From: an uncultured Candidatus Saccharibacteria bacterium
GTDB lineage: Bacteria > Patescibacteriota > Minisyncoccia > Phycocordibacterales > CALRHW01
Assembly: GCA_964390845.1 (NCBI GenBank)
Contig: CAYMIL010000001.1
Coordinates: 102,326 to 166,325, forward strand
DNA length: 64,000 nucleotides
Reading direction: 5' to 3'
In this document: piece by piece, positions 34,419 through 63,359 of the stretch
How positions within the stretch are numbered: the first letter of the stretch is position 1
Layout of the letters: each line of letters starts with the position of its first letter
Notes under the pieces: generated by a model
Told to the model about the DNA's origin: nothing
The model's database searches: none
Seen by the model: only the letters and a program-made list of their open reading frames with translations
Program-made: the position numbers and the translations under genes

Positions 34419-35369
34419 TCACCCCTCGCAAATATCCCACTCAAACCCCCTACCGAAATGTCCACCCACAGATGTTTTAGCAAATTTAATTTTATCTAAT
34501 CGAAGCAATGTTCTAATACCAAGCGGAGATAGATCGTAATCATCTATAGACACCTCTTTTCCATCCACAAGTGCAATATTCATCACAGGATTTTGTTTAC
34601 CTATAGCATATGCGAGCTTTACCAGCACCTCTTTGGCATTATATTTTTTCAAATAATCAACGGCGATTTTTCTAGCAACATATGCTCCGGAACGATCTAC
34701 CTTTGTATAATCTTTTCCAGAAAAAGAACCTCCGCCTATTGGCACCCTTGGCCCATAATTATCTATAACAATTTTTCTACCAGACAAACCGGTGTCTGCA
34801 TCAAAACCGCCCTGCTTCCATTCACCTGCAGGATTTATCAAATACTCCTCTGCTTTAATTATTTTTTTTACTAACTTCAAAAGTTCGGGAGATTTTGTGT
34901 TTTGAAAACTTGCGACGACGGTTTTAACTTTTTTATTTTCTATAGTAACCTGCGTCTTTCCATCATATGGATATTTTTTGTAAATTTCCATGCATAGATT
35001 TCTCGCAAGCTCATATTCTAGTGGTAATAAATTTTTAGTTTCGTTACACGCATAGCCGATCATGATTCCCTGATCTCCAGCTCCGCCAGTATCAACTCCG
35101 CGAGCTATTTCAGGACTTTGTTTTGAAATATTGATTATTATCTTATACCCCTTCCCCACAATGTCTTTTACAATTTTCTCTAATTGTGGATTCGCTTTTG
35201 ATGTCACCTCTCCATTTATTGTGATAAGTTTGTGACCGCCCATTATTTCTACAGCAACTCTAGATTCCGGATCTTTTTTCAAATATGCATCGAGAATGCT
35301 GTCTGCTATAACATCACATTGCTTGTCAGGATGTTTTGGACTAACAAATTCTGCTGTGTATGTACTCAT
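34419..35369 (-). CDS. metK: S-adenosylmethionine synthetase (short, AT-rich gene)
   Basis: Start at the internal Met with an AAGAGGA RBS. GHPDK-like motif (SPKHPDK) and GGGSFSGKDYTKVDRSGAY (MetK signature GGGAFSGKDPTKVDRS). About 316 aa, shorter than typical. Confidence 0.75.
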   Translation of the reverse strand: MSTYTAEFVSPKHPDKQCDVIADSILDAYLKKDPESRVAVEIMGGHKLITINGEVTSKANPQLEKIVKDIVGKGYKIIINISKQSPEIARGVDTGGAGDQGIMIGYACNETKNLLPLEYELARNLCMEIYKKYPYDGKTQVTIENKKVKTVVASFQNTKSPELLKLVKKIIKAEEYLINPAGEWKQGGFDADTGLSGRKIVIDNYGPRVPIGGGSFSGKDYTKVDRSGAYVARKIAVDYLKKYNAKEVLVKLAYAIGKQNPVMNIALVDGKEVSIDDYDLSPLGIRTLLRLDKIKFAKTSVGGHFGRGFEWDICEG

Positions 35370-35594
35370 ATAAATAAAAAATTCCTCTTGTAATGAGGAA
35401 AGATAGCGACGTTTTATCTTTCCCAAACTGGGCCAGATGGAGCACCTTGTGTACACAGGTTGCTGAATGGTCATTGAGCTGGATCTCTCGCATTCTCTTG
35501 ATATATTCAGTTGTGATTACATTTTAGCACATGTTAATTATGTGGGGCAACAAAAGAAAAAGAGAGCGCTTTCGTGCTCTCTCATCCTATAGTG

Positions 35595-37293: not shown

Positions 37294-37327
37294 GGGCGCG
37301 CCGCACAGCGGCGCGCCCTTCTTTTTT
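37294..37327 (+). terminator. Rho-independent terminator
   Basis: GGGCGCGCCG-CACAG-CGGCGCGCCC perfect 10-bp GC stem followed by TTCTTTTTT. Confidence 0.7.
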
Positions 37328-37808
37328 ACCTAGTTACAGATATTGGAGTAGACGGGTCAATCTCACTATTTGCAGAAACAGTAATCCTATCCGTCTCCTG
37401 ATTACGTGAAATGGTATACCCTGTCGCATACTCATCTGTATTAGCTGGTTGGGACACAAGTGAATCGTGTGGCAACTGTGCAAGATACAGCGGAACCAGA
37501 CATGGGCGGATATCGATTGTCCCAGCGCCACCAAGAGAACTCATCTCAGCACCTGGCTCAAGCGGGATATCAAACGCACTACCGTCACACGTAAAGACAC
37601 CGCGATTGTCGGCAATGTTTTGTCCAACCGCATTGAGAATCGCATTCACATTACTCACCCGTTGAGAATCTCTCGCTTGCTTAAATTGCCTCGACGGATT
37701 AATTGCTACAAGTACTATGCCCGCAAGAATCGCAATGATTCCAAGCACAAGCAAAATTTCTATCAACGTAAACCCTCTCGTATGTATTCTTTTCTTCATA
37801 TCGCTCAC
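37326..37808 (-). CDS. Type IV pilin / pseudopilin with prepilin N-terminal cleavage-methylation domain
   Basis: RGFTLIEILLVLGIIAILAGIV class III signal peptide. Variable C-domain with Cys pair. Confidence 0.75.
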   Translation of the reverse strand: MSDMKKRIHTRGFTLIEILLVLGIIAILAGIVLVAINPSRQFKQARDSQRVSNVNAILNAVGQNIADNRGVFTCDGSAFDIPLEPGAEMSSLGGAGTIDIRPCLVPLYLAQLPHDSLVSQPANTDEYATGYTISRNQETDRITVSANSEIDPSTPISVTR

Positions 37809-37836
37809 TATTTAGAGCGATAGTTCACAAGTATTG

Positions 37837-38334
37837 TTATCGCGCCACAAACGACGCGCCGACCATTTCCCCATCTGGTGACCGCATAAGCGTATCTGTA
37901 TGGTATCCAAACTGCCCATCACCATTTTCTCTATAAATACCCACATAGTATGTTGCACCATCTGTGGTGCCCCGAAGTAGTGGTACAGGGAAATTGTCAT
38001 ATTCACCAGCAGGTAAATCTCGTGCACCGAGTACATTTCCCAAATCGCCATCTTTATCTTCAAACACAGCAACCCAACCTGGCTCGGTGAGTTTCGCATG
38101 AGCAATCATCACAACTTTTCCAGCGACCTGATCCTCCACAACAACCGTATCGTCCGTACGCACAGCACCCACAACAGCCGCCGTCTGCTGTGACGCATTT
38201 TCAGAGGCTGTGTCTGATAAACGAGAATCCATGTCGCCACGACCACCCCACACCGCAAAACCAGTGCTCACGCCGAGCACAAACCCAATAACAGTGCCGA
38301 TAATAATTCTATTCTGTGGGGTTATATTTTTCAT
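37837..38334 (-). CDS. Hypothetical membrane-anchored secreted protein
   Basis: 165 aa. N-terminal TM anchor, then a soluble domain. No family recognised. Confidence 0.45.
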   Translation of the reverse strand: MKNITPQNRIIIGTVIGFVLGVSTGFAVWGGRGDMDSRLSDTASENASQQTAAVVGAVRTDDTVVVEDQVAGKVVMIAHAKLTEPGWVAVFEDKDGDLGNVLGARDLPAGEYDNFPVPLLRGTTDGATYYVGIYRENGDGQFGYHTDTLMRSPDGEMVGASFVAR

Positions 38335-38373: not shown

Positions 38374-40044
38374 TTACCCTGCAATTGGCAACTCAACATA
38401 GAACTGTGAGCCCCTGCCCTCACCTTCAGACTCTGCCCAGACACGGCCGTTGTGCGCCTTCACAATCTCTTTAGCAACATAGAGCCCCAGACCTGTTCCA
38501 CGAATATTGACCTTGTTTGCGTTTTCTGCGCGCTTAAACTTTGCAAAGAGTTTCGGAATAATCTCAGCAGACATACCGATACCTGTGTCTTTGACCGCAA
38601 ACAACACCACTCCTTTTGCTGGGTCTTTTGTGAGTGACACGGTAATCGAACCCTGTGGTGTGTACTTTACTGAGTTATCAATAAGATTTGCGACGACCTG
38701 CTTAAACTTATCGAGGTCAGCATTGACCACAAACTTCTGTCGCTCATCAAGCTGGATAGTGAGGTCGAGGCCGGCTTTGTCTATGTTTGGCTTCAGCTCA
38801 CCCGCAACCTCTCTCACCATATCTTTAAGATCGAGTGGACGCATATCGTATTTCATAGTTCCAAGCTCGATACGAGAAATATTAAGGTAGTCGTTGACGA
38901 CGTTTGTGAGCGTGTTTGTTGATTCGTAAATTTTCTGTACAGCATCACGCACATCCGGTGCAACATCTCCGTAATCCCCTTCAAGAATGAGTGACGAATA
39001 CCCCTTCATTGCAGTAAGCGGGCTTCGGAGTTGATGTGTCGCAAACGAAACAAATTCTGTCTTTTGGACATCAAGTTCTTTGAGGCGGGTGTTGGCGTGC
39101 TCTAAGCTGGTATTTGTTTTCTTTAAGTTTTCGGCCAAAATCTCGATTTCTTCACGTGATTTTATTTCTCTTTTTACACTTCTTATAAGTTGATATCCTA
39201 ATATCGAAAACAGAGCGAGTGTTACAAAAACAACATATCTTACATTTTGTATATTTCTAACAAATAGAATCGAAAACGTGAGCAACCACAGTGTCACTAC
39301 AATGGCTTGTGTACTAATCAACTTTATGTTAAATGCCTTAAATTTAACGACTAAATACACAAGAAATGCAATAAATAGAGGCATCCCTAAAAGTCCGACC
39401 TGAGCAATAACCCAATTTTCAGTCAAACTTCCAATAATATTACCTGAGGAAAAAGCAAAAAGAAAAACAATTATACCCGCCAAAAATAGACCTATCTCTT
39501 TTCTGCGCCTTATTTCAATTGCCATCTGACCAAAACCAACAAATAAAACCGAGAAGCTAAGAAGAATTTCTAGTCCATACGTATAAAAAATAACGAGATT
39601 GCTCTCAACGGCATCACAATAAGAAACATCAATACCAGGAAGAAATCCTTTAGTTGGCAATATTATCGCTACAGGTAAAAGCACAGCCATCAAAAATAGT
39701 TTTTTACTGAAAGGTAAATCTTTTCTTTTTATAAACACATAAGCAAAGTAGAAAGAAACACCGTAAATTAGTACTTCGCATAATATCTGGAGACTCCAAT
39801 AAAACAAAACCAAATCTGGTCTATTGCTTGCCCATAAAAGCACATCGATTACGGCCCAGCTTATAAAAAGAAAAACAACATTTAAAAAAAATCTAATTGA
39901 GAGATCCTGACGTTTATGAAAAAGCAAGGCTGCAAATACTAAAGCGGCAAGAATTGCGACAAAATGAGAGTAGTAAAGTAAGGTTGGAACATTACTTGAG
40001 AAAATAAAATGTTTCGCTGGCTCCCAAGGGCAAAAAATTTCCAT
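38374..40044 (-). CDS. Sensor histidine kinase with polytopic (about 7 TM) N-terminal sensor domain
   Basis: HisKA H-box (HQLRSPLTAMKGY), HATPase_c (N, G1, G2 boxes: GTGLGLYVAKEIV). Start set at the Met just downstream of the neighbouring gene's stop. Confidence 0.8.
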   Translation of the reverse strand: MEIFCPWEPAKHFIFSSNVPTLLYYSHFVAILAALVFAALLFHKRQDLSIRFFLNVVFLFISWAVIDVLLWASNRPDLVLFYWSLQILCEVLIYGVSFYFAYVFIKRKDLPFSKKLFLMAVLLPVAIILPTKGFLPGIDVSYCDAVESNLVIFYTYGLEILLSFSVLFVGFGQMAIEIRRRKEIGLFLAGIIVFLFAFSSGNIIGSLTENWVIAQVGLLGMPLFIAFLVYLVVKFKAFNIKLISTQAIVVTLWLLTFSILFVRNIQNVRYVVFVTLALFSILGYQLIRSVKREIKSREEIEILAENLKKTNTSLEHANTRLKELDVQKTEFVSFATHQLRSPLTAMKGYSSLILEGDYGDVAPDVRDAVQKIYESTNTLTNVVNDYLNISRIELGTMKYDMRPLDLKDMVREVAGELKPNIDKAGLDLTIQLDERQKFVVNADLDKFKQVVANLIDNSVKYTPQGSITVSLTKDPAKGVVLFAVKDTGIGMSAEIIPKLFAKFKRAENANKVNIRGTGLGLYVAKEIVKAHNGRVWAESEGEGRGSQFYVELPIAG

Positions 40045-40054
40045 AAAGTACGTA

Positions 40055-40894
40055 TTATAGCTTTTTTGCAAAAACCTTAAAGTTTCTGAACCCGTTACCA
40101 AATTGATAATCAACAATAAGTTGAACCCTGTCTTTTTTAGTTACCTCTATATCTGAATCGAGCGGAACACAAACTGGACCATTTAGTGCAAGTGTGTCAC
40201 CGATAGAGGTTTTTTTATTTAACCAAGTCGAACTTTGAAGATAAATACTGTTTAAGGTACCTGTTTTTTTAATTTTAATAATATGTTCCGAATGGTGTTC
40301 CATTAAATTACTTTTATTCAGCAGAACGGAATCGAGAAGTGTTGGGTCGGAAAGACGTTTCATTTTTGGTTTTGGTAAAAATTTCCAAAAATGTTTAACC
40401 ATCCGCATATTAAATCCAAAATCATAAAAATTTGTCTCCGTAAGCAAAACGGATGTGTCTTCTTTGCAAGGAATAAATACTGTTTTCTCGTCTACATACC
40501 CCTTTTCAAAAAGCCTGTTTAGTGCCCAGATTTGGAACTCATCCACCATTCCTGTAGTCAACATTTCCATCGTAACAACATCAATAGTTGTACCCTCCGG
40601 AAGACGAATATTACGTGCATCGCCAAGCATAACTTGCACCACGTCACCATATCCATTTCTCTGAATATTCTCGTGGGCGAGTTTTGCGACAAATGGGTCA
40701 AACTCTATAGAAAAAACTTTTTTTGCTCCGGCGCGAGCCGCAAAGAGAGCAAGAATTCCGGAACCCGTTCCAACGTCAAGAACAACGCTGTCCGGCCCCA
40801 CAGCCGCATTAATAGCTTGTTCAAATTTCCTTGTTCTTTCCTCATCAAGGAGACACTGTGTAACTAAATCAATAGAGCTAAATGTTTCGTCCAT
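40055..40894 (-). CDS. Class I SAM-dependent methyltransferase with PRMT-like motifs
   Basis: Motif I VVLDVGTGSGILALFAARAGA, post-I IEFDP, motif II IDVVTMEML. Reminiscent of protein arginine methyltransferases. Confidence 0.6.
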   Translation of the reverse strand: MDETFSSIDLVTQCLLDEERTRKFEQAINAAVGPDSVVLDVGTGSGILALFAARAGAKKVFSIEFDPFVAKLAHENIQRNGYGDVVQVMLGDARNIRLPEGTTIDVVTMEMLTTGMVDEFQIWALNRLFEKGYVDEKTVFIPCKEDTSVLLTETNFYDFGFNMRMVKHFWKFLPKPKMKRLSDPTLLDSVLLNKSNLMEHHSEHIIKIKKTGTLNSIYLQSSTWLNKKTSIGDTLALNGPVCVPLDSDIEVTKKDRVQLIVDYQFGNGFRNFKVFAKKL

Positions 40895-42163: not shown

Positions 42164-42403
42164 TTAATTTATTGCTTCAATTCTAACATCTTTTGCAATT
42201 ATCTCTAGGGACGGGTCACTATAGTTGGAATGTTGATCTTCATAGCCGTAGAAAACAAACCGTTTATATCCATGGTTTTTAGGAACTTTCCCAACATCGT
42301 CTGTATGACCCAACTCATAATTGGATTTCAGCGTGTTTGTCATAAAATCACTCTCTTCCGTTTCAGTCACCAGCACTTGAACACTAGAATTTAGAGTCCT
42401 CAC
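42164..42403 (-). CDS. Small hypothetical protein
   Basis: 79 aa ORF downstream of the RHS toxin gene and its first small ORF. Confidence 0.3.
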   Translation of the reverse strand: MRTLNSSVQVLVTETEESDFMTNTLKSNYELGHTDDVGKVPKNHGYKRFVFYGYEDQHSNYSDPSLEIIAKDVRIEAIN

Positions 42404-42456
42404 AAAACCAAGAACATCCGTGAATAGGGACTTGATTAGAACATGCGATTCATTTT

Positions 42457-42702
42457 CTACTTTAGCAGTCGCTCTGGAATTACATCACCACGTATCTCTA
42501 TACCAATAATTTTTCCAGCCTGATCAATATCGACAACAATGTCCCCTTTAAAATCCTGTCCTCCCCGTACAGTATTTCCATCAATTACCATTTGCTGTGT
42601 TGCCTGTGGTGGATAGGTATCAGTATTTTGTAGATGAATATAGGAGACCCAAGAACTGCCTGTATTTTCACTTTCTATTTCTATGTTATTTTTTTTAATC
42701 AT
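42457..42702 (-). CDS. DUF2283-like small protein (candidate immunity or antitoxin)
   Basis: 81 aa. DIVVDIDQAGKIIGIEIRG resembles the DUF2283 core. Starts 7 nt after the RHS gene stop. Confidence 0.4.
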   Translation of the reverse strand: MIKKNNIEIESENTGSSWVSYIHLQNTDTYPPQATQQMVIDGNTVRGGQDFKGDIVVDIDQAGKIIGIEIRGDVIPERLLK

Positions 42703-42709
42703 TGATTTT

Positions 42710-45700
42710 TTAATCTATTTTCTTAAACCTGCCGGGTGTCAATACTTCATCCTTAATAACTGTTATTATTCTCTTTGTTGCGTTATCGAGAGGAACTAAA
42801 ACTTGGTCTTTATATCTTACCACCTGTTGATATTTCGAATCAAAATATTTCTCCCCGGTCCTGTAGGCATCCATTACCTTCTCCGCGGTAATACCGAACT
42901 TCTCCCGAATTATAATATTGTCTATTCCATGACTTGAGATCTCGATACCTTCTTTGATAAAAGCATCTTTGATAACATTGTATTTTTGCCTGAAATTGAG
43001 ATTGCTGCTACCAAATCCACTTTTCACAAAGTTCGTTGCAGACTCAACACCACCAATAGCAATCTTCTCGGCTCCTCCAGCAATCTTTACTCCAGTCTTC
43101 TTCTCAGCCCCTCCTGGCGTAAGCATCGATCCAACAAACAATGCACCCTCAAGAGATCTGGACCCTCCTTCTTCACCAACATCTGGAGAATATGCGACTT
43201 CTGGCCATAGAAACATTGTAGCAATTGCCGTCCAGAAGTTTCCATCTCGGTCCACATTCACCATTGGGTTGTTTCTCGCATAAGAATAGCTATTGAGTGA
43301 TTGTGGGTCCGCAAGATACATTGGAAGTTCAAGTCCTGTTTTATCTTTCAAATCTTTTGCGTTTCCGACCGCCAAGAATGCAGGATCCACAGATATAAAC
43401 CGCCCAGTGTTTCCCGCGTAGTACCTCGCTCCCATATAATTAAGCCCTGTCTCAGCATCATACTCATGCCCGGTAAACTTTCGCTGTTCGGAGTAGCCGA
43501 GACCGAAATCTAGGCGAGTCGCGCCATACGGATAATAGTCAACTGTCTCTGCTGAAGTACCAGCTGAGTTTGTGATCACGCTTGAACCACCAAGATGATC
43601 GTTGTGAATATACAGAATATCTGGCGTCGATGTACCGTGTGTTTCAATTGTTGCCACGACCTGGTCACCCAAAAACACGTGCGCGGTTGTCGTGGTGCCT
43701 CCAGAACCAGACAAGCCCGAATCATCCGACACCTCAATGTTCCAATATTTATTTGGATACACTGTCGTGTTCCGTCCAAACGCATAGACAACGCGGTCGC
43801 CAGCATGGTCGTAAGAATACGTTGTTGCCGCAGGACCCACAGTGAGCATCGTCGGTCTGTTTTTATAATCCCAGGTACTTGTTGCAATGCCATTGCCCGT
43901 CAGCATATTGCCATTGCGGTCGTATGTCAGTGTTCCCGTAACCGGAGTCGACACTACGGCGTGCGGGTTTGCATACTGACTTTTTACCGACGTGCTTGGA
44001 TACGTATATGTGCCGATATCAGACTTGCTGAGAATGTTGCCGATAGCGTCATAGGTATACGTCTCACGGTACGGCAACGTCGCTGCTGCCGTTGTCGATG
44101 CAGAAAGAAGGCGGTAGAGATTGTCGTAGACATATTCAACCGTACGCTGAATTGTTGTTGTGGCGTTCTCTTTAAGTAAGGTTATGTTTCCAACCTTGTC
44201 ATACGTATACTCAAGATCTTGATACTTCGTACCGCTTGCACCCGACTGCTTTGTTACTTTTTTAGTGAGACGATATAGCTTGTTTGCGTCGTATGTATTC
44301 GTTGCCTCAATTCCGTTTGCGTTTTTCTGGAAACTAACCTTGCCTTCTGGAGAGTAATCAAGGTCATCCACCAACACAGAGAACGACGTCGCACTCGGAA
44401 GCTTCTGTAACACACGCTCTACAAAACCACCGTTGTTGTATTCATACTGTATCTGCAAACCATCTGGATAGGTGATAAGTGTGGGGTTTCCCTGTCGATT
44501 AAATGCATACGCTGTGGTATATGTCGCACCAGATATTGTCCGACCTTCTTGCACCACACGCCCAGCGGTGTCATATGCATATGTGGTTGTTGCTCCCTGT
44601 GTCACAGCCTGGCACAATCTCGTCTTTCCAAATGCGCATGTATCATACGCGTACACAACATCGACACCCGGTGTGCCTGTGAAGTTTTCAGTAAGTGGCC
44701 GATTGATGGCGTCGTAAGTATATTGAATTGTCTGACCCTTTCCATCGACTACCTGCGTTATATTTCCAGCATTATCATAGGAATATGACCATGTAGAAAA
44801 TGAGGTGTCTGCTGGATCATGAAGATCCTGTGCGGTTAGACGGCGACCCAAACCGTCGTAGGTAAAGCTACGAATATTTCCGAGTGCATCGGTAATTTTT
44901 GTGAGTAAATTTAGACCATTATATTCGTAGTATGTGGAATACGTACTCGTGCCATTGTATTCATCAACCCGAATGAGGTTGCCACGAGCATCCTTGTACA
45001 ACTTCCTCTGATTGTTTAGCGGATCTTTTACAAGGACATCCCATCCGTCATATGTTGTTGTGGTGGTACCGAGATAATTTTTTGCAGAAGTCACACGTCC
45101 CAGTGCATCGTATGAAAACTCTTGTCGTAAATTATTATCAACTGGCGTAGAATCATAATCAGAACCATCAGTAACAAAAAATGGCAACGAGTGCTGTTTC
45201 TTCAAACCACGAGAATCGTACCCGATCTTTGTAACCGTGAAAGCGTCTTGGTCACCCTCTGACTGAACACGTTCTTGTATGACACGACCAAAGCCATCGA
45301 AATACGTGTATGTTGGCACAGACATTCCAGCATCAAGATATTGTGTTTTTACTACGCCTGTAGGAAATTGATTATCAAGATATGTATACGAACTTTTTTC
45401 CTCAAGTGTCGATACCAACGATGGACTTGAAACCTTTTCAGACAAGACCCTATCAAGGCCATCATAAACAAACTCTGTTACCTTTCCATTTTCATCAACA
45501 ATTTTTTTAGGTTTTCCAGATGAGTAATCATACTGAAAATCTTTGATGTGACCCACGGAATTGGTCGTCGTTGATGGATACAAACCATATACATCGTAAG
45601 CATATGTTGTGGTTGCTCCAAGGGAATTGATTTCACCAACAATCAGGCCTTTCTCATCGTAAATTGATTGCTCATTTACAAAACCCGATCCACTTTTCCA

Positions 45701-48367
45701 ATTTTCAATCTTTGTCTTATTACCAAACGACACAGAGCCTAATGGGAGACTGTCGTAATAAATCTTACTTTCAGACAATAATCCACTACCAACATCAACA
45801 AGCGACACACGCGAAGGCAGGACGATTCGACCATCTGAACTTGTTGCGTAAAAATATTTTTTAGTAGTTTTATCTGTACCAACATCGGAAAAACCCCCAA
45901 CACCATCACCGATAACTTTTCCCCACTGATCTTCTCTACTAATCGACAAAGCGAGATCGTCATACTCATATGTGGTTGCACGATCAACCGGAGTACCGCC
46001 TTCACCATATTGCCTTTCCAAAAAGGTTGTCAGTTTCAGAAATGACGATGTTGCACTTATTGAGGAATTATGACTATCCCACCTATTTTGAATACTGGAT
46101 AATATATTCCCCTCATTATCATATGTTTCAATAAGATACGGCCTTCCAATCTTTGAATAATTATCCTGAAACTCTCCAGTTGTGAATGACGTTTGATTTC
46201 CTTGGTGAAAATATTTTTTTGTAATATTCCCGATCGGATCTGTCTCAATGATTAATCCGAATCCAGAGACTTTCTTATCATGTGAATCTGCATAATATAG
46301 ATCACCCTCTGTATACACATAAGTAGTAGTTCCAACGCCTCCCACGCCGTCATGAACGGCAATCGAAGACACGGTTATTAGATTTTCTGGAAGGTTCGGA
46401 TTCAACACGCCGCCTACTCCAGTATATTGAGCTGACCCCTTATACGTTACCAATACAGAACCTTTTTGGGGCAATAAATAGTAATGGAGCTTATCCGAAA
46501 CATCTCCGATATGGCGATAAACTTTATTAATTACACCCTCACTCGTGCGTCTACTAATAAGTAAATCCATTAGACCATCCCCGTCTATATCAGCAAAACG
46601 AACGCCCTGATCGGTGTTATTGAAATTAAAAAATTCTGGAATATCCCACGAGGTATCGAGTGTCCAGCCGTGACCGGTGTTTAGATATACTTTTTTAACT
46701 TCGATATATGGATCACCGCCCCTCCAAGCACGAATCAAATCAACAAGTCCATCACTATTTATATCTTCAAATCTTACCCCACCGTCCGTTTGAGATTTGA
46801 AAATTTCTGGAATATCCCACGAGGTATCGAGTGTCCAGCCGTGACCAGTGTTTAGATATACTTTTTTAACCTCGATATATGGATCACCTCCACGCCAACT
46901 TTTTACAATGTCTGGCAACATATCGCCATTTACATCAATCAAATATACACCCCTATCATGCGTATCCTCAACAAAAAACTCTGGCAGACTCCACGAAGTA
47001 TCGAGTGCCCAACCGCTACCAGTATTTAAATACACAACCCTTACATCTTCAGGTGGCTCAGGGTTTCCTAACATTCCGCGCACAATATCTGGCAAACCAT
47101 CCCCATTCACATCAGCAATTCTAGTGCCAGAATCCTTATTGTAATTTATAATAAACTCTTCTGGAACGCTTACAGCAGGATCCTCAACCCAATCACCTTG
47201 AGAGCTTGTATAAGTAAAACTTCTTGCTGGCAACACCACCTCCTGGCTTTCAGATTCAAAACCTTTTTCTACTACCGATCCCAATAAATCTCTCGACTTG
47301 TTATTTCCCTTACTATACGTGAAATCGTAAGCTCTACTTAGAGTAGAACCAACATAAATATTAATTTTGTTAATTCTAAAAGATGTCGTGACTGGAAAAG
47401 AAGTTTTATATGAAATTGTAGATGTTGCCAAATTCTCTTTAAGAAATTCAACTTTGTACAGACCGCTATCTGTTCCATACCCCGTGTATTTTATATATTT
47501 CGGATAAATTTGCCCCCCATCTTTCTCATATTCATATTTTATAAAGTTGCCATTTGCATCTTGAATCGTGTCGACCATCCATCGAAACACATGACTTGTG
47601 GTCGTGGCATCGCCCTGTCGACTTTGTGAGGTTAACCCAAAAGAATACCTTGTACCATTTCTGTCATATACAGTCCATATATTATTAGTTAATTCATATT
47701 TTCCAAAACTACCATCATCTACACGCGGCAAAAATGTGCTCGTAGTAGCGCCCAACGATGCCACAGAAAGCTCTCCCGACATTGATGAGAAAAAATTGTT
47801 TTCTGTATAGATCTTTTCCACACCAGAACGATTAATACGCTCTATGTACGGAACATCAATAGACCAACCGAATCCTACATAACTACCAAGAGTTCCAGAA
47901 TTACTACCGTAAGAAATACGCAATTGTGGATTCATTCCATTTCTACCTGGCGGTATAACAATTGGAATTTCAGTCTGGAAAGATCCATCAATATCAGCTA
48001 CGTTAAATATTTTTATATTTTCTGGAGTTTTAATATATCCCGTTTCGTCCTCAGACGACTGCATAACTAAGCCCCCATCTTCACCACCCTCATCCCGCCC
48101 AGCGCTAGATGTTCCATCGACAGAAAAAATGGGCGTAACATCGCCCATTGCATCTCCACTATTAATTGTCGGTTTTTCTATAGACGAGTCCTTCTTTTCG
48201 GCCCCCTCTCCAGCAGAATCGGATGACGTATCGCCCTCAGAAGAAGATTCTGAATCGCCATCCTGAGATACAGACACCTCAAAAGCGCTCACCATACCAG
48301 CGGGAACAACAAAAGAAATAATGAGGATACTCGTAAGAAAACGTAGTAAAAATGAAGGTTTTTTCAT
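42710..48367 (-). CDS. Secreted RHS/YD-repeat polymorphic toxin with FG-GAP/VCBS-like repeats and variable C-terminal toxin domain
   Basis: 1885 aa. Signal peptide. Four DxNxDGxxD repeats (ADVNGDGLPDIV, IDVNGDMLPDIV, EDINSDGLVDLI, ADIDGDGLMDLL). Dozens of YD repeats (YxYDxxGR). RHS core end (YDAETGLNYMGARYYAGNTGRFISVDP...YARNNPMVNVDRDGN), then an unrelated roughly 240-aa C-terminus. Confidence 0.85.
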   Translation of the reverse strand: MKKPSFLLRFLTSILIISFVVPAGMVSAFEVSVSQDGDSESSSEGDTSSDSAGEGAEKKDSSIEKPTINSGDAMGDVTPIFSVDGTSSAGRDEGGEDGGLVMQSSEDETGYIKTPENIKIFNVADIDGSFQTEIPIVIPPGRNGMNPQLRISYGSNSGTLGSYVGFGWSIDVPYIERINRSGVEKIYTENNFFSSMSGELSVASLGATTSTFLPRVDDGSFGKYELTNNIWTVYDRNGTRYSFGLTSQSRQGDATTTSHVFRWMVDTIQDANGNFIKYEYEKDGGQIYPKYIKYTGYGTDSGLYKVEFLKENLATSTISYKTSFPVTTSFRINKINIYVGSTLSRAYDFTYSKGNNKSRDLLGSVVEKGFESESQEVVLPARSFTYTSSQGDWVEDPAVSVPEEFIINYNKDSGTRIADVNGDGLPDIVRGMLGNPEPPEDVRVVYLNTGSGWALDTSWSLPEFFVEDTHDRGVYLIDVNGDMLPDIVKSWRGGDPYIEVKKVYLNTGHGWTLDTSWDIPEIFKSQTDGGVRFEDINSDGLVDLIRAWRGGDPYIEVKKVYLNTGHGWTLDTSWDIPEFFNFNNTDQGVRFADIDGDGLMDLLISRRTSEGVINKVYRHIGDVSDKLHYYLLPQKGSVLVTYKGSAQYTGVGGVLNPNLPENLITVSSIAVHDGVGGVGTTTYVYTEGDLYYADSHDKKVSGFGLIIETDPIGNITKKYFHQGNQTSFTTGEFQDNYSKIGRPYLIETYDNEGNILSSIQNRWDSHNSSISATSSFLKLTTFLERQYGEGGTPVDRATTYEYDDLALSISREDQWGKVIGDGVGGFSDVGTDKTTKKYFYATSSDGRIVLPSRVSLVDVGSGLLSESKIYYDSLPLGSVSFGNKTKIENWKSGSGFVNEQSIYDEKGLIVGEINSLGATTTYAYDVYGLYPSTTTNSVGHIKDFQYDYSSGKPKKIVDENGKVTEFVYDGLDRVLSEKVSSPSLVSTLEEKSSYTYLDNQFPTGVVKTQYLDAGMSVPTYTYFDGFGRVIQERVQSEGDQDAFTVTKIGYDSRGLKKQHSLPFFVTDGSDYDSTPVDNNLRQEFSYDALGRVTSAKNYLGTTTTTYDGWDVLVKDPLNNQRKLYKDARGNLIRVDEYNGTSTYSTYYEYNGLNLLTKITDALGNIRSFTYDGLGRRLTAQDLHDPADTSFSTWSYSYDNAGNITQVVDGKGQTIQYTYDAINRPLTENFTGTPGVDVVYAYDTCAFGKTRLCQAVTQGATTTYAYDTAGRVVQEGRTISGATYTTAYAFNRQGNPTLITYPDGLQIQYEYNNGGFVERVLQKLPSATSFSVLVDDLDYSPEGKVSFQKNANGIEATNTYDANKLYRLTKKVTKQSGASGTKYQDLEYTYDKVGNITLLKENATTTIQRTVEYVYDNLYRLLSASTTAAATLPYRETYTYDAIGNILSKSDIGTYTYPSTSVKSQYANPHAVVSTPVTGTLTYDRNGNMLTGNGIATSTWDYKNRPTMLTVGPAATTYSYDHAGDRVVYAFGRNTTVYPNKYWNIEVSDDSGLSGSGGTTTTAHVFLGDQVVATIETHGTSTPDILYIHNDHLGGSSVITNSAGTSAETVDYYPYGATRLDFGLGYSEQRKFTGHEYDAETGLNYMGARYYAGNTGRFISVDPAFLAVGNAKDLKDKTGLELPMYLADPQSLNSYSYARNNPMVNVDRDGNFWTAIATMFLWPEVAYSPDVGEEGGSRSLEGALFVGSMLTPGGAEKKTGVKIAGGAEKIAIGGVESATNFVKSGFGSSNLNFRQKYNVIKDAFIKEGIEISSHGIDNIIIREKFGITAEKVMDAYRTGEKYFDSKYQQVVRYKDQVLVPLDNATKRIITVIKDEVLTPGRFKKID

Positions 48368-48558
48368 AAAAATGGTCTAAAAAGCACTTTTTCTATTAAT
48401 TTGATACTACCATAAACTTTTATAGTTCAAGAATTTCTAAAGTTTTTCTAAAGTACTTATCCACAACATATATTGTCGAGATGGCACAAAACAAGGTATG
48501 CTGATATCTTCGTCGTTTTTTGACGAGGAGGTATCGCATCAGCGTGCCTAGGCCACAC

Positions 48559-49224
48559 ATGCGCATCCTCATCATCGAAAACGATACGACTACTCGCAAG
48601 TTTTTAGAGTCGAACCTCGAATCATGCTGTTTTGCCGTTGACAGTGTACCCGATGGTGCACGTGGATCATTTATGGCACGCACCAACGAATATGACCTCA
48701 TCTTGTGCGCATATATAGTCGCAGAAAAAACTGCACCCGATATGTGTCGAGAAATACGCAACGCGGAAAAACATACTCCTATAATTATCATTTCTGAACA
48801 CTCCGACATCGACGCTAAAATAGAATGCTTCGAGGCTGGTGCTGACGACTATATTGTAAAACCGTGCGTGTTTGATGAAGTTCTTGCGCGAATACGTGTT
48901 GTACTAAAACGACCACGCACAATCGCGTGCGCCGTGTTTGAAATACAAGATATTAGATTAGAAACGGGCACCCAGCGCCTACTCTACAAAAACAAAGAGG
49001 TATATCTTACAAGGAAAGAATACGCCCTCCTCGAATATCTGATGCGCCATCGCGGACGCCTCCTTACAAGAGGAATGATTCTCGAACATGTCTGGGACAT
49101 TGATGCAAACCCTTTTTCAAATACAGTCGAAACACACATTATGAATCTAAGAAAAAAGATTCGTGATATGGAAAAGAAGAGAATCGTAAGTGTGCCAGGT
49201 CGAGGATACATGTTGCGCGGATAA
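48559..49224 (+). CDS. OmpR-family response regulator, atypical receiver (phospho-acceptor Asp replaced)
   Basis: Receiver plus winged-helix (RGYMLRG) domains. Aligned with OmpR, the LDLMLP position reads LCAYIV (D to C) and the DD pair reads END. Confidence 0.75.
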   Translation: MRILIIENDTTTRKFLESNLESCCFAVDSVPDGARGSFMARTNEYDLILCAYIVAEKTAPDMCREIRNAEKHTPIIIISEHSDIDAKIECFEAGADDYIVKPCVFDEVLARIRVVLKRPRTIACAVFEIQDIRLETGTQRLLYKNKEVYLTRKEYALLEYLMRHRGRLLTRGMILEHVWDIDANPFSNTVETHIMNLRKKIRDMEKKRIVSVPGRGYMLRG

Positions 49225-49390
49225 CACCTTATAAAAACTTTAAGTTTTCATGATGCGATTTCTTTTACGATAGTACTGTGGGAAGTTGGTCGAATTTTCC
49301 CACAAACAATAATGCACTTTTACTAATCAATCATGAAGTAGTACAGCAACTTCTGGCGATAGTTCACAAGAGATGTGCATCATTGCAAAA

Positions 49391-49414
49391 ACAACCGCCC
49401 AACATGGCGGTTGT
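49391..49414. terminator. Bidirectional Rho-independent terminator
   Basis: ACAACCGCC-CAACAT-GGCGGTTGT hairpin flanked by AAAA and TTTT, between convergent genes. Confidence 0.65.
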
Positions 49415-49443
49415 TTTATCTACACATTCCCACCTGTCAGAAA

Positions 49444-57430: not shown

Positions 57431-60088
57431 TTAGTTCTGTGTTAGAAGTGCACGTACTTTTATATTGTCCGCAAGCACGGTCGGTGTGTATCGAATATAT
57501 GTTGTCTCATTCGCCTTGTCTGTTGTGTTGTATGAACCCCATGTCTGGCCGTCGTCGGTAGATTTCTCAAATGTTCCAGAAGCAGATGCTGTGGTTGTGT
57601 CATCAAGAAGCAAACCATCTGTTTCTGCATTATACAACCTGATACGCAGTGTAGGCACTGTGCCACCAAATGCCGTTGAGAATCTCCACGCAAAACGCTT
57701 GCTTGTTATTGAAGACTGCGCGACAGACGGCTGGTAATGACTGTCTGTTGTATCGTCTTCATATGTACAACAAATATTGAAAATTCTAGCCGGCAAACAC
57801 ATTGAACCAATTGTTCTAAACTCCACCGCAAACTGCACTTCTGTAGTGGCGGTTGCCGCAGACAAATCCCCTGTCTGGTCAACGAGTGTCCATGTGCCTG
57901 AATTATCGCTAATTCCATTCGTTCTGTAGTAGATTCGCGCAGGCTCTGTTGGGAATGTAAGACCCGCATTTCCTAGATATGGTGCGTCGTTGAAAAATAC
58001 ACGAGAGAGCTTTGTTGCATTTGACGTTGAGAGGGATGGCGTAACGAGGCGCTGACTTACACTTCCTGTCGCATATGACCAGTCGGCACCAAGGGGTACT
58101 GTATACATGACGTTGACCAATGCGGTGGTACCTGTACGACAAATGTATACCAATCCATCCTCCGACCACACAGAAAGCGCGGCTCCCTGCGCACTCGGGT
58201 GCGGAACCGAATCAGAATCAGCAGTAGACTGATCTTGCTGAGCAGTATCCACAAGAAACATGTGATCGAAAGGGCGAGAACCAGATGCGTCATACTGCGT
58301 GAGATACGCTCTGTGGTGCGCGGTTGTTGTTGCAGACGTTGTGGTGATAATGAGGCGGTCAATTTGGTCGGCAATTTCTACCGCAGTAATGGCACCAGTC
58401 GCAGAATATGTAGCCGTACCTCCCGCAGGAATTTCTGTCATCGAATCCGCAGCCCATGTTGAACTTCCAGAGGTTATACCAGTAAGAGGCGCTCGGTAGA
58501 TCCTCGAGGAGGTAGCAAAATACAAACACTTCACACCAGAACCTGGACCATGGCTGAGAGTACCGATTCGACCGTTATTTGTTTGTGTCGTGTTTCCCGT
58601 TACTGTCTGTGTCGCAGTTACAAGTGTAAATGCAGAGGATGATTTTCCTGCACCGATACCACCAAGTGTAGTGAGGTCTGCTCTGATATTGTATTTATAC
58701 ACCTGTGGAGTGGTCGCCGCTTGCACCTCAATAATGTAGACAAACTGCTGTGTCCAACTTGCTCTATCATCAATAGCCAAACCACCCGCGATACCGTTAC
58801 CTCCCACGATTACATACGAAGTACCAGCGCCAATAGTTCCCGCTGATGCAGAAAGTGTAATAGATGTAGTACTTCCAACAGCAGAGATGGTGTACCATGT
58901 CGTGATTGACGCAGGATTGGTACTACCAAAACCAATACGACAACCCAAATGAGTGGCGGCCGCCCACGAAGTACCCGCACCAGTAACACCTGTTCCCGAC
59001 ACCGTCACAGTACCTGTTGAATAAATAGCATCGAGATCAACGAGAGAGTACACAGCTTTCTGTTTATCTACCGTAGTTGCCGCGGCTATTGTTTGGCCTC
59101 CAGAAATAAAATCATCATAAGACAAGCCAGTCGCCATAGAAAGACCTGCCGCCGCAACCACCACTGCGGTTGTTGCTGTCAAAATACGTAAATCCTCAAT
59201 GACGTAGGCCGTACCAGAAGAAATGGAGAGGCTTGGTGTCGTACCTCCGGTACCGCTTGCTGTCACCGTTGATTGGATTGTAATAGAAGTGTCCGAACTA
59301 ACTGCAGAAATATAATACCAAGTATCAATCTGCGTAGGGTCTGTACTACCAAAACCAATACGGGAACCAATAGGGATACGACTCGTAGACCACGCTGTAC
59401 TTGTGCCTGTTACGGTTGCTCCAGATACAGCGATAGTACCATCAGTATACTTTTCATAGGATGCGCGCAAACCTCTGATTGTTTGGTTACCTCCGCCGGC
59501 AGGATAGGTCAATGTAACAAACCCACGCCATGAAAAGAGCGATGTCGTTCTGTCATAGAGAAACAGAGAAATACGACGAGTAGCCGCGGCTGTGGCGTTG
59601 TCTGCAAGGAACACCCAATCGAGCTGGAGCGTCTTGTCGATTACATACGATGTACCTGAGCCTATTGTACCCGCAGAGGATGCGAGCGTCAGAGATGTTC
59701 CGCTCGGAATTGCGGCAATTGTATACCACGTTGTAATTGCCGTGGGGTCCGTACTACCAAAACCAATGCGGGCACCAACGGGCACGCCATCACTAAACCA
59801 TGATGTGCCGGAGCCCGTAACGGCCGTTCCAGAAACAGCAACGGTACCTGTGGAGTATGTGCCGTTTTTGTCGGCCCATGACACAACGTGCGGATAGATA
59901 CCCGGAATAGATGTAGATGTTTCAACCGGGCGCGCCACACCAATTTTTGCTGGCCCCGCAAATTTATCCGTCGGGTTTACTCCAGTGTATTGAAGTATCA
60001 AATCACCAAGAGTTGTCTTGGTTGAATCGTACGACGTATACGGGGTCGTCGCACCAGTAAACACATGTTCAATCGCTCGTTTTGCCAT
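57431..60088 (-). CDS. Large Thr/Ser/Gly-rich repetitive surface or secreted protein
   Basis: 885 aa. Three copies of a roughly 75-aa module (Y[ST][DT]GT[VI][AT]VSG[TA][AG]VTG.GTSW...RIGFGST[DN]P..I[TD]TWY.I[SA]A...[TS]SIT...S.GT.G.GT.YVI). Four-nucleotide gap to the upstream ORF. Confidence 0.55.
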   Translation of the reverse strand: MAKRAIEHVFTGATTPYTSYDSTKTTLGDLILQYTGVNPTDKFAGPAKIGVARPVETSTSIPGIYPHVVSWADKNGTYSTGTVAVSGTAVTGSGTSWFSDGVPVGARIGFGSTDPTAITTWYTIAAIPSGTSLTLASSAGTIGSGTSYVIDKTLQLDWVFLADNATAAATRRISLFLYDRTTSLFSWRGFVTLTYPAGGGNQTIRGLRASYEKYTDGTIAVSGATVTGTSTAWSTSRIPIGSRIGFGSTDPTQIDTWYYISAVSSDTSITIQSTVTASGTGGTTPSLSISSGTAYVIEDLRILTATTAVVVAAAGLSMATGLSYDDFISGGQTIAAATTVDKQKAVYSLVDLDAIYSTGTVTVSGTGVTGAGTSWAAATHLGCRIGFGSTNPASITTWYTISAVGSTTSITLSASAGTIGAGTSYVIVGGNGIAGGLAIDDRASWTQQFVYIIEVQAATTPQVYKYNIRADLTTLGGIGAGKSSSAFTLVTATQTVTGNTTQTNNGRIGTLSHGPGSGVKCLYFATSSRIYRAPLTGITSGSSTWAADSMTEIPAGGTATYSATGAITAVEIADQIDRLIITTTSATTTAHHRAYLTQYDASGSRPFDHMFLVDTAQQDQSTADSDSVPHPSAQGAALSVWSEDGLVYICRTGTTALVNVMYTVPLGADWSYATGSVSQRLVTPSLSTSNATKLSRVFFNDAPYLGNAGLTFPTEPARIYYRTNGISDNSGTWTLVDQTGDLSAATATTEVQFAVEFRTIGSMCLPARIFNICCTYEDDTTDSHYQPSVAQSSITSKRFAWRFSTAFGGTVPTLRIRLYNAETDGLLLDDTTTASASGTFEKSTDDGQTWGSYNTTDKANETTYIRYTPTVLADNIKVRALLTQN

Positions 60089-60845: not shown

Positions 60846-63359
60846 ATGAATAGTACACGCACACTCGCACGTTTAATTGTTTTTTCACTCCTCTCGCTGT
60901 CAGCACTTGTCGCATATGCGGACTATCAAATCGTATCTCCAGGCGACACTATTCGTCTTGGTGAGTTTGTATACGACGATGATTTCACACCCACCACAAC
61001 CCCATGTACCCTTACCATCTACGATCCATCTGGTAGCACGGAGGTAAATGCCGACTCAATGAGTGCCGACCTCAGCGGATGGCATTATTATGATTATGCC
61101 GTTGACTCAGGAGCAACAGAAGGTGTGTGGTCAGCGTTTATGTCTTGCGGAAGCGTGCCGACGGGAGATTTGGTAAAGGTAGATAAATCATTTAAGGTTG
61201 GCGCAACGACGGTAGCAAGCACCACAATCGCAAGTGCTGTCTGGAATAACGCATCTCGTACCCTCACATCCTTTGGCACACTCGTATCAGACACTGCCTC
61301 TGGTGTATGGGGCTCAGTAAGCAGGACACTTACTGGAGCAGGTCTCACATCGGGATCACTTGCTACTCTTTCAGATGTTCAGACAGCGACAAGCTCTCTC
61401 GCTTCTGCAATGACGACAAATACGGCGTCTATAAATTCAACCATCACCACCGCCTCAACATCTGTTGGCTCGCTCATCGCATCAGTACCGGCTAACGTCT
61501 GGTCATACTCTTCACGATCACTCACGACGTTTGGCACGCTTGCCGCAGATACCGCATCAAGCGTATGGGGTTCTGTGACGAGAACGCTCACGGGTGCAAA
61601 CCTCGACACTGGTTCCCTCGCAACATTGTCTGATGTGCAGTCTGCAAGCTCATCACTCGCGGCAGCGATTACCAACAACGGCACAACACTTAACACAGCG
61701 ATTACCAACGCTTCAACATCACTTGCAGCAACCATCACCACCGCCTCAACATCTGTTGGCTCGCTCATCGCATCAGTACCGGCTAACGTCTGGTCATACT
61801 CTTCACGATCACTCACGACGTTTGGCACGCTTGCCGCAGATACCGCATCAAGCGTATGGGGTTCTGTGACGAGAACGCTCACGGGTGCAAACCTCGACAC
61901 TGGTTCCCTCGCAACATTGTCTGATGTGCAGTCTGCAAGCTCATCACTCGCGGCAGCGATTACCGCAAGCACAGCAAGCATCACATCAGCAATCGCATCA
62001 CTCAACGACATTTCTGCTGATGATGTATGGCAATACGGTTCTCGAACACTTACAAGCGGTGGTGGAGGCGCAACAGCTGAAGAGGTCGCCGATGAAGTAT
62101 GGAATCGAGCATCAAACCAGCTTTCAACATCAGGAAGTATTGGAAAACTTCTCGCTGACAACATCGACGCGGCAATCTCAACTCGAGGCACAAGCAACAT
62201 AACTGCGGCGGATGTGTGGGCAGTCGGTACTCGAACACTTACAGACTACTCAACATCAAGCATTGCAAATGCAGCGGCACTTGCAGTGTGGGCAAACGGC
62301 GCTCGAACACTTACAGACTACGGCAACGATATCACTGCGGCAGATGTATGGAATACACTCACATCAACACTTACTTCAGTTGATTCAATCGGCAAACTCC
62401 TCACAGACAATATCGACGCAACAATCTCTTCTCGTGCATCACTTGCAACACAAGATGCTCAGTGGTTTGTCACAATGTCTGATTACTCATCTGTACAGGC
62501 AGGAGAAACATACCGAGCTCGCGTACAGGTACTCAACGAATCAAGCACACTTGAAAGCCCATTTGCAGCTCCACGTATAACACTCTACGACGCAGAGAGA
62601 AACACTGTCGTATCTTCTGTTGCGATGACATCAATCGGCACAGGTTTGTATGAATACACATATTCTGTTTCAAATTCAGCAGCGCAAGGTGTATGGGAAG
62701 CCGTCGTTTCAACACAAGTTGAAAGCGGAAAGTATGTTACAAACAATGACTACTGGATCGTTGCTGGCTCACCTGCTCAGGTTATCATCAACAGCGTAAC
62801 AGCAAACTCCCCTTCTGATATCAGCGCAAACGTCACAATTACCAACGAAGGTCTCACTGGATACGAATACCAGTATGAATGGTGCGTTGTTACAGACGCA
62901 AACAACCCGTGCGGTGGTGGCAATGACACATACCATGCAACAGGCGCTAAGTTTATTAACCCAGGCGAAGACTGGAATACCAACCTCACCGCGACAGTAT
63001 CTTCAGCTGGCTCATACTACTTCAAGCTCGTCGTATACTTCGGTACAGAGTCATCCGGCTCATCACGCTCATTTAGCGTAACTGGTGGTGGTAGCGGTGG
63101 AGGAAGCGGTGGTGGCGGAGGTGGAGGTGGGGGCGGTGGAGGTTCTTCAGCGGGAACAGCAGTTTCTGCATGCAAAGGAGCAGACTTCAACCATGACAAC
63201 TTCGTAAACTCAATCGACTTCTCTATCTTACTTGCGTTCTGGAAGACAAATTCACCATTTGCAAACAAGTGTGTTGATATCAACAAAGACACAAAGGTTG
63301 ATTCGATAGACTTCTCTATCCTGCTTTCTCAGTGGGGTACGCCAGGTAAAGCACTATAA
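60846..63359 (+). CDS. Secreted repetitive protein with C-terminal dockerin-like domain
   Basis: 837 aa. Signal peptide. About three 97-aa tandem repeats rich in RTLT and S/T. Gly-rich linker (GGGSGGGSGGGGGGGGGGGGSS). C-terminal duplicated Ca-binding-type segment DFNHDNFVNSIDFSILLAFW / DINKDTKVDSIDFSILLSQWG, as in dockerin type I. Confidence 0.65.
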   Translation: MNSTRTLARLIVFSLLSLSALVAYADYQIVSPGDTIRLGEFVYDDDFTPTTTPCTLTIYDPSGSTEVNADSMSADLSGWHYYDYAVDSGATEGVWSAFMSCGSVPTGDLVKVDKSFKVGATTVASTTIASAVWNNASRTLTSFGTLVSDTASGVWGSVSRTLTGAGLTSGSLATLSDVQTATSSLASAMTTNTASINSTITTASTSVGSLIASVPANVWSYSSRSLTTFGTLAADTASSVWGSVTRTLTGANLDTGSLATLSDVQSASSSLAAAITNNGTTLNTAITNASTSLAATITTASTSVGSLIASVPANVWSYSSRSLTTFGTLAADTASSVWGSVTRTLTGANLDTGSLATLSDVQSASSSLAAAITASTASITSAIASLNDISADDVWQYGSRTLTSGGGGATAEEVADEVWNRASNQLSTSGSIGKLLADNIDAAISTRGTSNITAADVWAVGTRTLTDYSTSSIANAAALAVWANGARTLTDYGNDITAADVWNTLTSTLTSVDSIGKLLTDNIDATISSRASLATQDAQWFVTMSDYSSVQAGETYRARVQVLNESSTLESPFAAPRITLYDAERNTVVSSVAMTSIGTGLYEYTYSVSNSAAQGVWEAVVSTQVESGKYVTNNDYWIVAGSPAQVIINSVTANSPSDISANVTITNEGLTGYEYQYEWCVVTDANNPCGGGNDTYHATGAKFINPGEDWNTNLTATVSSAGSYYFKLVVYFGTESSGSSRSFSVTGGGSGGGSGGGGGGGGGGGGSSAGTAVSACKGADFNHDNFVNSIDFSILLAFWKTNSPFANKCVDINKDTKVDSIDFSILLSQWGTPGKAL
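61446..61963 (+). repeat. Intragenic tandem direct repeat: 227 bp identical copies (61446-61672 and 61737-61963), 291-bp period
   Basis: Read directly. Identical nucleotide stretches encode the repeated SLIASVPANVWSYSSRSLTTFGTLAADTASSVWGSVTRTLTGANLDTGSLATLSDVQSASSSLAAAIT module. Confidence 0.8.

Follow-up and report, generated by a model that had tools for sequence, protein, structure and literature searches.

Rhs/WapA-type toxins, among them Bacillus subtilis WapA/WapI, RhsA (7q97), Tse5, and Tre23, combine an RHS shell, a core with an aspartyl autoproteolysis motif, and a variable toxin, and a downstream immunity gene accompanies them. WapA has no PAAR/VgrG adaptor but a Sec signal. In the TcB-TcC cocoons of Tc complexes (YenB/YenC and TcdB2-TccC3), an SpvB-type N-terminal domain (SpvB-N), a propeller, an RHS cocoon, and a PxxxxDxxG motif are found, and natural tcB-tcC fusion genes exist that place them in one polypeptide; no immunity genes were found in the surveyed Tc loci, whose targets are eukaryotic (PMC7861908). 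An RHS/YD toxin that is secreted and has an immunity gene as its neighbor was reported earlier from a complete Saccharibacteria genome (PMC6031116). Here, we analyzed a 64,000-nucleotide (64-kb) stretch of contig CAYMIL010000001.1, hereafter called the window, in which the gene for an RHS/YD-repeat protein of 1,885 amino acids (aa) is followed by two small open reading frames (ORFs). Our explanation of the locus, to which we assign a probability of about 70%, is that it encodes a self-contained, Sec-exported RHS cocoon toxin together with its own immunity protein in a probable Patescibacteria/candidate phyla radiation (CPR) bacterium. The toxin-immunity pair is a further example of a well-known bacterial weapon and not a new kind, and current understanding of polymorphic toxins is not overturned by it.

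The toxin gene is complete and occupies positions 42710..48367 (-) as a single unbroken ORF of 1,885 aa plus stop, which was identified by Pfam and NCBIfam domains. It is followed by the DUF2283-like candidate immunity gene (42457..42702 [-]; 81 aa), whose start lies 7 nucleotides (nt) past the toxin stop codon, and then by a small ORF of 79, 70, or 59 aa, depending on the start (42164..42403 [-]), for which no membership of the toxin system is supported. An earlier note on this DNA had given exact positions for all three minus-strand ORFs (1,885, 81, and, from GTG, 79 aa). Its proposal that the large ORF is an RHS polymorphic toxin with a variable C-terminal effector after the core was upheld by the domains and by the reassortment of modules among relatives, both of which are described below.

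The RHS-associated core covers residues 1611-1710 (43238..43537 [-]), with a match to TIGR03696 (Rhs_assc_core) over residues 1611-1709 at 58.9 bits versus a cutoff of 32.5. Its motifs include GRFISVDP at residue 1655 and PMVNVDRDG at residues 1701-1709, the latter exactly at the junction of core and tail. A PxxxxDxxG motif with a catalytic Asp pair is the autoproteolysis signature of TcC and Rhs proteins (PMC7861908), and since PMVNVDRDG fits PxxxxDxxG, the core is predicted to cleave itself at its end, between N1710 and F1711. The terminus had been called canonical, which is right for the TIGR03696 match and the retained PxxxxDxxG, but the core ends in PMVNVDRDG-N and not in the textbook DPxGL. 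In this DRDGN end, and in an insertion of about 23 aa that is common to its relatives, the window core differs from those of Rhs/WapA-type toxins.

Counted from FWTAIATMF, the C-terminal tail is 175 aa long (residues 1711-1885) and not about 240 aa, as had been thought. Its first part, a post-cleavage linker (residues 1711-1788; 43004..43237 [-]), consists of a hydrophobic stretch and then a Gly/Ala-rich stretch, is acidic (pI 4.9), and had no match in a Pfam search. It is about 60% identical to the linkers of two related proteins, P0004 and P0029, up to ...LTPGG, and unrelated to that of a third, P0010. The remaining 97 aa form the toxin domain (residues 1789-1885; 42713..43003 [-]), which is predicted to adopt a BECR (RelE/ParE-like) fold.

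When the 175-aa tail was searched alone, no match was obtained in Pfam or among PDB sequences, and a word-indexed protein search returned nothing, not even the window protein itself. An exhaustive HMMER (phmmer) scan of 1.84 billion representatives yielded 31 proteins at an E value of ≤1e-3, the window protein included. The second-best match, P0003 (2,175 aa with tandem repeats of about 50 aa; E = 6e-20), was rejected as a false positive that arose from 14 additive weak repeat matches; its repeat unit weakly resembles one helix. What the other 29 matches have in common with the tail is its last ~97 residues, which nearly always form the C terminus of the matching protein too. Carriers of this module range from 80 to 2,384 aa, and many have it behind the same CPR-style RHS core, others behind unrelated N-terminal parts. 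Six positions are invariant or nearly so in a 25-sequence alignment of the module (A1), namely, H25, R33, G37, G50, D55, and V82, and all six are kept in the window protein (H1813, R1821, G1825, G1838, D1843, and V1870). With A1 as a profile, the word-indexed search gave just three short matches and a search of the PDB gave chance antibody matches only, and nothing meaningful was found for family members in PHROGs or NCBIfam. The sole recurrent weak Pfam match was DUF4258, seen for 2 of the 25 members (best E = 1.3e-3). Relatives of the module were absent from cultured phage and plasmid collections (tblastn with stand-alone relatives), its DNA pattern had zero matches in viral contigs, and no confirmed relatives came from contig scans in which either the P0010 toxin domain or the complete window protein was the query. 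What emerges is a toxin-domain family of about 30 clusters, covered by no curated library, with His1813 and Arg1821 as catalytic candidates. The tail had been described as lacking any recognizable motif and its effector as possibly novel. No curated library indeed matches it, but its last 97 aa hold a conserved family motif, and while the family is absent from those libraries, the predicted fold is the well-known one of RelE/ParE and colicins E5 and D (BECR).

The fold of the toxin module was predicted with confidence. Fold comparison of the toxin-domain model returned matches that include ColE5, ColD, and CdiA-CT NC101; AAA+ lid domains scored similarly but align with the helical part only. 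Foldseek against the PDB gave nothing significant for the predicted domain, and its near-full-length matches were solely PrpT, RelE, HigB, and CdiA-CT, at nonsignificant TM scores of 0.4 to 0.5. Among the weak matches of the model in BFVD were a RelE-type repressor and a phage DUF4258 protein. The domain is thus modeled as what is probably a BECR-fold toxin and a distant relative of DUF4258 (PF14076). It resembles DUF4258 in a helix-borne His...Arg...RG[IV] motif, in a length of about 80 to 100 aa, in the predicted RelE/ParE-like fold, and in its occurrence both as a stand-alone protein and as the C-terminal tip of large delivery proteins; it differs in that the window tail does not match PF14076 even at an E value of ≤10. 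Sequence identity to the RelE/ParE, colicin E5/D, and CdiA-CT(NC101) structures is just 3 to 13%. The catalytic residues of RelE lie on the sheet, whereas the candidate His and Arg of the window domain lie on helix 2. DUF4258 itself is documented as a toxin of toxin-antitoxin systems in the RelE/ParE superfamily (PMC11980606) and also, under the entry "tRNase (?)," as a CdiA-CT tip (PMC11630599).

Because of the predicted fold and the invariant His and Arg, we consider RNase activity of the toxin domain, by analogy, to have roughly even odds. The main rival is that the tail is a ParE-like nonnucleolytic poison, such as a gyrase inhibitor, or has some other non-RNase activity on the same fold. 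The near-invariant His and Arg (H25 and R33 of A1) point instead to catalysis, and the characterized BECR domains on Rhs and CdiA proteins (ColE5, ColD, and CdiA-CT NC101) are RNases (PMC11630599), although the latter point is an analogy only. A nonnucleolytic tail therefore appears improbable to us.

To place the small downstream genes, we relied on related loci that were found with a degenerate DNA pattern from the most conserved stretch of the toxin module. This pattern had one match in the window, where none was expected by chance, and matched six metagenome contigs. Two of the related loci, L009, which encodes P0010, and L008, which carries an orphan cassette (P0006), hold toxins of the RHS-linked subfamily to which the window toxin belongs. 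The next gene starts 4 nt (L009) and 11 nt (L008) past the toxin stop codon and encodes an 81-aa and an 84-aa homolog, respectively, of the window 81-aa ORF, with 36% and 28% identity to it, 19 invariant columns, and a shared GKIIGIEI...IP motif. A DUF2283-type gene thus lies 4 to 11 nt downstream in 3 of 3 toxins of this subfamily. The homologs of L009 and L008 pass the gathering score of DUF2283 (PF10049), at 25.9 and 23.5 bits. In L009, a 67-aa DUF2283 gene (25.3 bits) also stands behind another RHS tail, one that has a KHGIEQM... His-helix motif. Together, the 81-aa ORF and these three relatives match the family at 22.7 to 25.9 bits and share a C-terminal hairpin motif, ...D.D..GK[IL][IV].IE[IL].... 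Furthermore, the isoelectric points are of the same pattern in all three DUF2283-type pairs, being 9.3 to 9.5 for the toxin and 4.6 to 5.1 for the partner; the window 81-aa protein is acidic, with a pI of 4.7.

Toxins of the other subfamily (NRVLGR..RGVT) are followed in 3 of 3 cases (L004, L006, and L010; toxin modules at L004 1042-1332 [-] and L010 2171-2470) by a different, mutually homologous family of 96 to 99 aa; behind two more divergent members of the toxin family (L005 and L007), the genes differ again. In this small sample, the type of partner tracks the toxin subfamily, as cognate immunity predicts. The sequence comparisons make the 81-aa DUF2283-like protein the likely cognate immunity protein of the window toxin, and they give DUF2283-type small proteins a concrete proposed role in immunity or as antitoxins. 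As side observations on the second subfamily, its members carry the motif …EHGLNRVLGR..RGVT…, and several of its carriers have a "…LNLQLFAE…" motif and unrelated N termini. Its 96- to 99-aa partners share a "SWFEDWY…IGxFEP" motif, and one of them weakly matches the colicin-D-type Colicin_immun family (E = 0.086).

The smaller of the two downstream ORFs had likewise been put forward as a candidate immunity gene. That proposal is supported for the 81-aa ORF, through its synteny with the toxin subfamily, but not for the 79-aa ORF, which matched nothing in Pfam or NCBIfam and has no counterpart in the related loci. Comparison with the DUF2283-like set by hhalign gave a probability of 0.2%, and the ORF was rejected as a second immunity gene of that kind. 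It is separated by 53 nt from the preceding 81-aa ORF and by 30 nt from speD on its downstream side, and its start is ambiguous: one GTG gives 79 aa, another GTG gives 70 aa (the NCBI call), and an ATG at 42343, with the ribosome binding site-like sequence GGAAGAGAG upstream, gives 59 aa. Public assemblies call it as a gene, with differing starts. It is probably not part of the toxin system.

These features also bear on the idea that the 81-aa and 79-aa ORFs have nothing to do with the RHS tail and form a toxin-antitoxin or regulatory pair of their own. The two are adjacent on the same strand, and the transcriptional regulator FseA/QseM is reported to contain a DUF2283 domain (PMC4755241). However, homologs of the 81-aa protein follow the same toxin subfamily at 4 to 11 nt in L008 and L009 without a 79-aa counterpart, the 79-aa ORF lacks any family or homolog, and the gap between the small ORFs is 53 nt versus 7 nt from the toxin gene to the 81-aa ORF. 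We regard an independent pair as very unlikely and an immunity function of the 81-aa protein as the better account of its position.

Relatives of the window protein show how its parts are exchanged. P0004 shares the RHS core and the linker with it and has a different toxin domain, while the parts common to it and P0010 are the core and the toxin domain, the P0010 linker being unrelated. In L005, L008, and L009, RHS-core/tail cassettes occur in arrays of three to four with varied tails and partners (L009 4194-5166 and 5752-6819; L008 2-3867, reverse strand; L005 892-6812). Behind one tail among these cassettes lies a gene of the Barstar family (38 bits), and for an orphan tail a weak match to ART-PolyVal was obtained. 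Read from the compared sequences, this reassortment of tail, core, and linker and these cassette arrays are classic polymorphic-toxin behavior and a further likeness to Rhs/WapA-type toxins. The earlier note had suggested a search for orphan C-terminal cassettes; the 64-kb window has none and holds a single RHS core. As a minor observation, relatives of the toxin module (P0033) at L011 1245-1484 and L012 1184-1423 lie on contigs with many in-frame stops under translation table 11. Because these stops align with Gly or Trp in homologs, the L011 and L012 genomes probably use a reassigned stop codon.

The N-terminal part of the protein is TcB-like. A Sec signal peptide is predicted from hydropathy and inspection for residues 1-28 (48284..48367 [-]), with cleavage between MKKPSFLLRFLTSILIISFVVPAGMVSA and FE. 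Residues 10-28 form the sole strongly hydrophobic 19-mer of the 1,885-aa protein (Kyte-Doolittle 2.09), and, judged by eye from hydropathy, the signal region has a basic n-region, a typical n/h/c layout, and a cleavage-type VSA motif before F. The relative P0010 has an equivalent N terminus. With this predicted signal, the window protein would resemble WapA. An acidic Ser-rich stretch separates the signal peptide from an SpvB/TcB-type N-terminal domain (residues 126-284; 47516..47992 [-]; Pfam SpvB, 65.7 bits), and residues 124-285 have PDB sequence matches to YenB (TcB) and SpvB-N. The FG-GAP beta-propeller blades follow at about residues 405-625 (46493..47155 [-]; Pfam FG-GAP_3, 49.3 bits). 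The four propeller motifs reported before were located (residues 419, 478, 535, and 593), with the sequence D[VI][ND][GS]D.[LM].D in place of DxDGDGxxD. Direct repeats of 102 nt lie in this region at 46626-46727, 46797-46898, and 46971-47072, 93% and 63% identical and spaced by 171 to 174 nt. Going by the pair that is 93% identical and 171 nt apart, propeller blades 2 and 3 are a recent duplication. Three short metagenome contigs with the same locus (L001 to L003) all end in the blade-repeat region, probably because the repeat causes a break in assembly.

The RHS/YD-repeat shell extends over about residues 640-1610 (43538..46450 [-]) and was recognized by RHS_repeat (PF05593; 103.9 bits, cutoff 22), YD_repeat_2x (TIGR01643; 79.9 bits, cutoff 15.8), and ten YxYD motifs. 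It is 34 to 35% identical to the shells encoded in L009 and L008, and its closest solved relatives by sequence are the Rhs cocoons RhsA (7q97), Tse5, and Tre23 of the type VI secretion system (T6SS). P0010 (2,384 aa) has the same Pfam architecture as the window protein. In its domain sequence, the large protein is built like a one-piece TcB-TcC fusion, with an N terminus of SpvB-N and FG-GAP blades where Rhs/WapA-type toxins have a PAAR or cell-wall-binding region.

This architecture raises the question of whether the protein is a B-C fusion of the Tc type that targets eukaryotic cells and works with a TcA injector from another part of the genome, the small ORFs behind it being unrelated. The SpvB-N domain, the FG-GAP propeller, the RHS shell, and the core all match TcB plus TcC, and such fusions occur naturally (PMC7861908). 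Yet the 64-kb window holds no TcA-like gene and no genes of a T6SS or a type VII secretion system (T7SS), its other large ORFs being housekeeping or MG2/dockerin genes, and the window protein carries a predicted Sec signal of its own. A conserved immunity-type gene is present here versus none in any surveyed Tc locus, and the 175-aa tail is below the 201 to 400 aa that are typical of TcC hypervariable regions (PMC7861908). The host, moreover, is a probable CPR bacterium. We therefore hold a Tc-type fusion against eukaryotic cells to be a distant prospect. That a TcB-like B-C architecture can occur with an immunity gene argues for a bacterial rather than a eukaryotic target.

Under the toxin-immunity reading, the 1,885-aa cocoon protein would be exported by the Sec pathway. 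Self-cleavage of the core between N1710 and F1711 would leave the 175-aa tail, made up of the 78-aa linker and the 97-aa toxin domain, encapsulated in the shell, and the tail would be released on delivery into a neighboring cell. There, a basic BECR-fold enzyme, most likely an RNase, would act through His1813 and Arg1821 and possibly Asp1843. In the producer, the acidic 81-aa DUF2283-like protein would bind the toxin and neutralize it. We also entertained a bolder version, in which the protein is a stand-alone delivery device of a CPR epibiont that has no T6SS, T7SS, or TcA: the propeller would bind the surface of a host or competitor, the linker would carry an uncatalogued BECR nuclease family across the target envelope, and DUF2283 would be a new immunity fold. 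We rate this version as doubtful. If true, the stand-alone cocoon would represent a way of delivery unlike those known for Rhs proteins, and it might serve the episymbiont in dealing with its host rather than in competition. Either way, the locus offers a testable toxin-immunity pair from Patescibacteria/CPR, a lineage whose cell-cell interactions are poorly understood.

Several observations weigh against the toxin-immunity reading. Two of three common Arg positions of the toxin family (A1 positions 29 and 36) are Asn and Phe in the window protein, so the activity of the window toxin could be altered or weak, and no curated family, not even DUF4258, is matched significantly by the sequence of the toxin domain. 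The 81-aa ORF scores 22.7 bits against DUF2283 (E = 1.1e-4), 0.3 bits short of the cutoff of 23; the score for the DUF2283-like assignment of the earlier note is thus just under the threshold. The synteny comes from just two independent related loci, and an AlphaFold2 model built from the single 81-aa sequence was of unusable quality (predicted local distance difference test score, 52.7). As side results, a profile of the DUF2283-like set (A3) gave nothing meaningful against the PDB, and tblastn with the DUF2283-like ORF gave no match in phage and plasmid collections. In the literature searched, the sole characterized context of DUF2283 is as a domain of FseA/QseM, a regulator of integrative and conjugative elements, and immunity beside RHS tails is not described there (PMC4755241). 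Finally, we infer secretion, cleavage, toxicity, neutralization, and target.

The substituted Arg positions would also suit a protein that is mainly a surface adhesin or scaffold for epibiont attachment, with a teneurin-like YD shell and a structural tail. CPR bacteria are often episymbionts, and a propeller with a YD shell also occurs as the teneurin scaffold (PMC6425310). On the other hand, the protein has an intact autoproteolysis motif and retains the invariant His, Arg, and Asp, and the gene has a tightly linked, conserved partner with which it forms the pattern of a basic toxin and an acidic partner, none of which has an obvious purpose in a purely structural protein. An adhesin with a structural tail is thus hardly probable, and a cocoon toxin with its immunity protein is the reading that we retain.

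The surroundings of the locus are those of an ordinary chromosomal core. The window encodes CysRS, DnaB, two penicillin-binding proteins, a Mur ligase, an aminoacyl-tRNA synthetase, MreB, and PriA, in addition to MetK behind an S-adenosylmethionine (SAM) riboswitch, SpeD, BipA, a histidine kinase, pilins, and an LD-carboxypeptidase. Window MetK shares a cluster of at least 90% identity with MetK of a metagenome-assembled genome of Candidatus Paceibacterota (Minisyncoccota, Patescibacteria/CPR). Because of this placement, a small genome is plausible, for which the 64-kb window alone would be insufficient evidence.

A few further features were noted around the toxin gene. A 129-aa minus-strand ORF upstream of it (48420-48809) was dismissed as it looks spurious, being rich in Cys, Arg, and Met and without a family. 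The whole region of about 1 kb upstream (48420-49440) contains no convincing gene; a 234-aa plus-strand ORF with a TTG start overlaps there. The SAM-I riboswitch (35411-35507 [-]; Rfam, 56.2 bits) and the 5' end of the longest MetK ORF (34419-35474 [-]) overlap. A 316-aa member of the same protein cluster points to an actual start of MetK some 35 codons farther downstream, in which case the riboswitch would be the leader. Two large proteins are possibly surface proteins, one of 885 aa without a Pfam match (57431-60088 [-]) and one of 837 aa with an MG2 (alpha-2-macroglobulin-type) domain and a C-terminal dockerin (60846-63359 [+]). At 37326-38334 (-), a type IV pilin-like gene with an N_methyl motif adjoins the gene of a DUF7282 protein, upstream of the histidine kinase gene (38374-40116).

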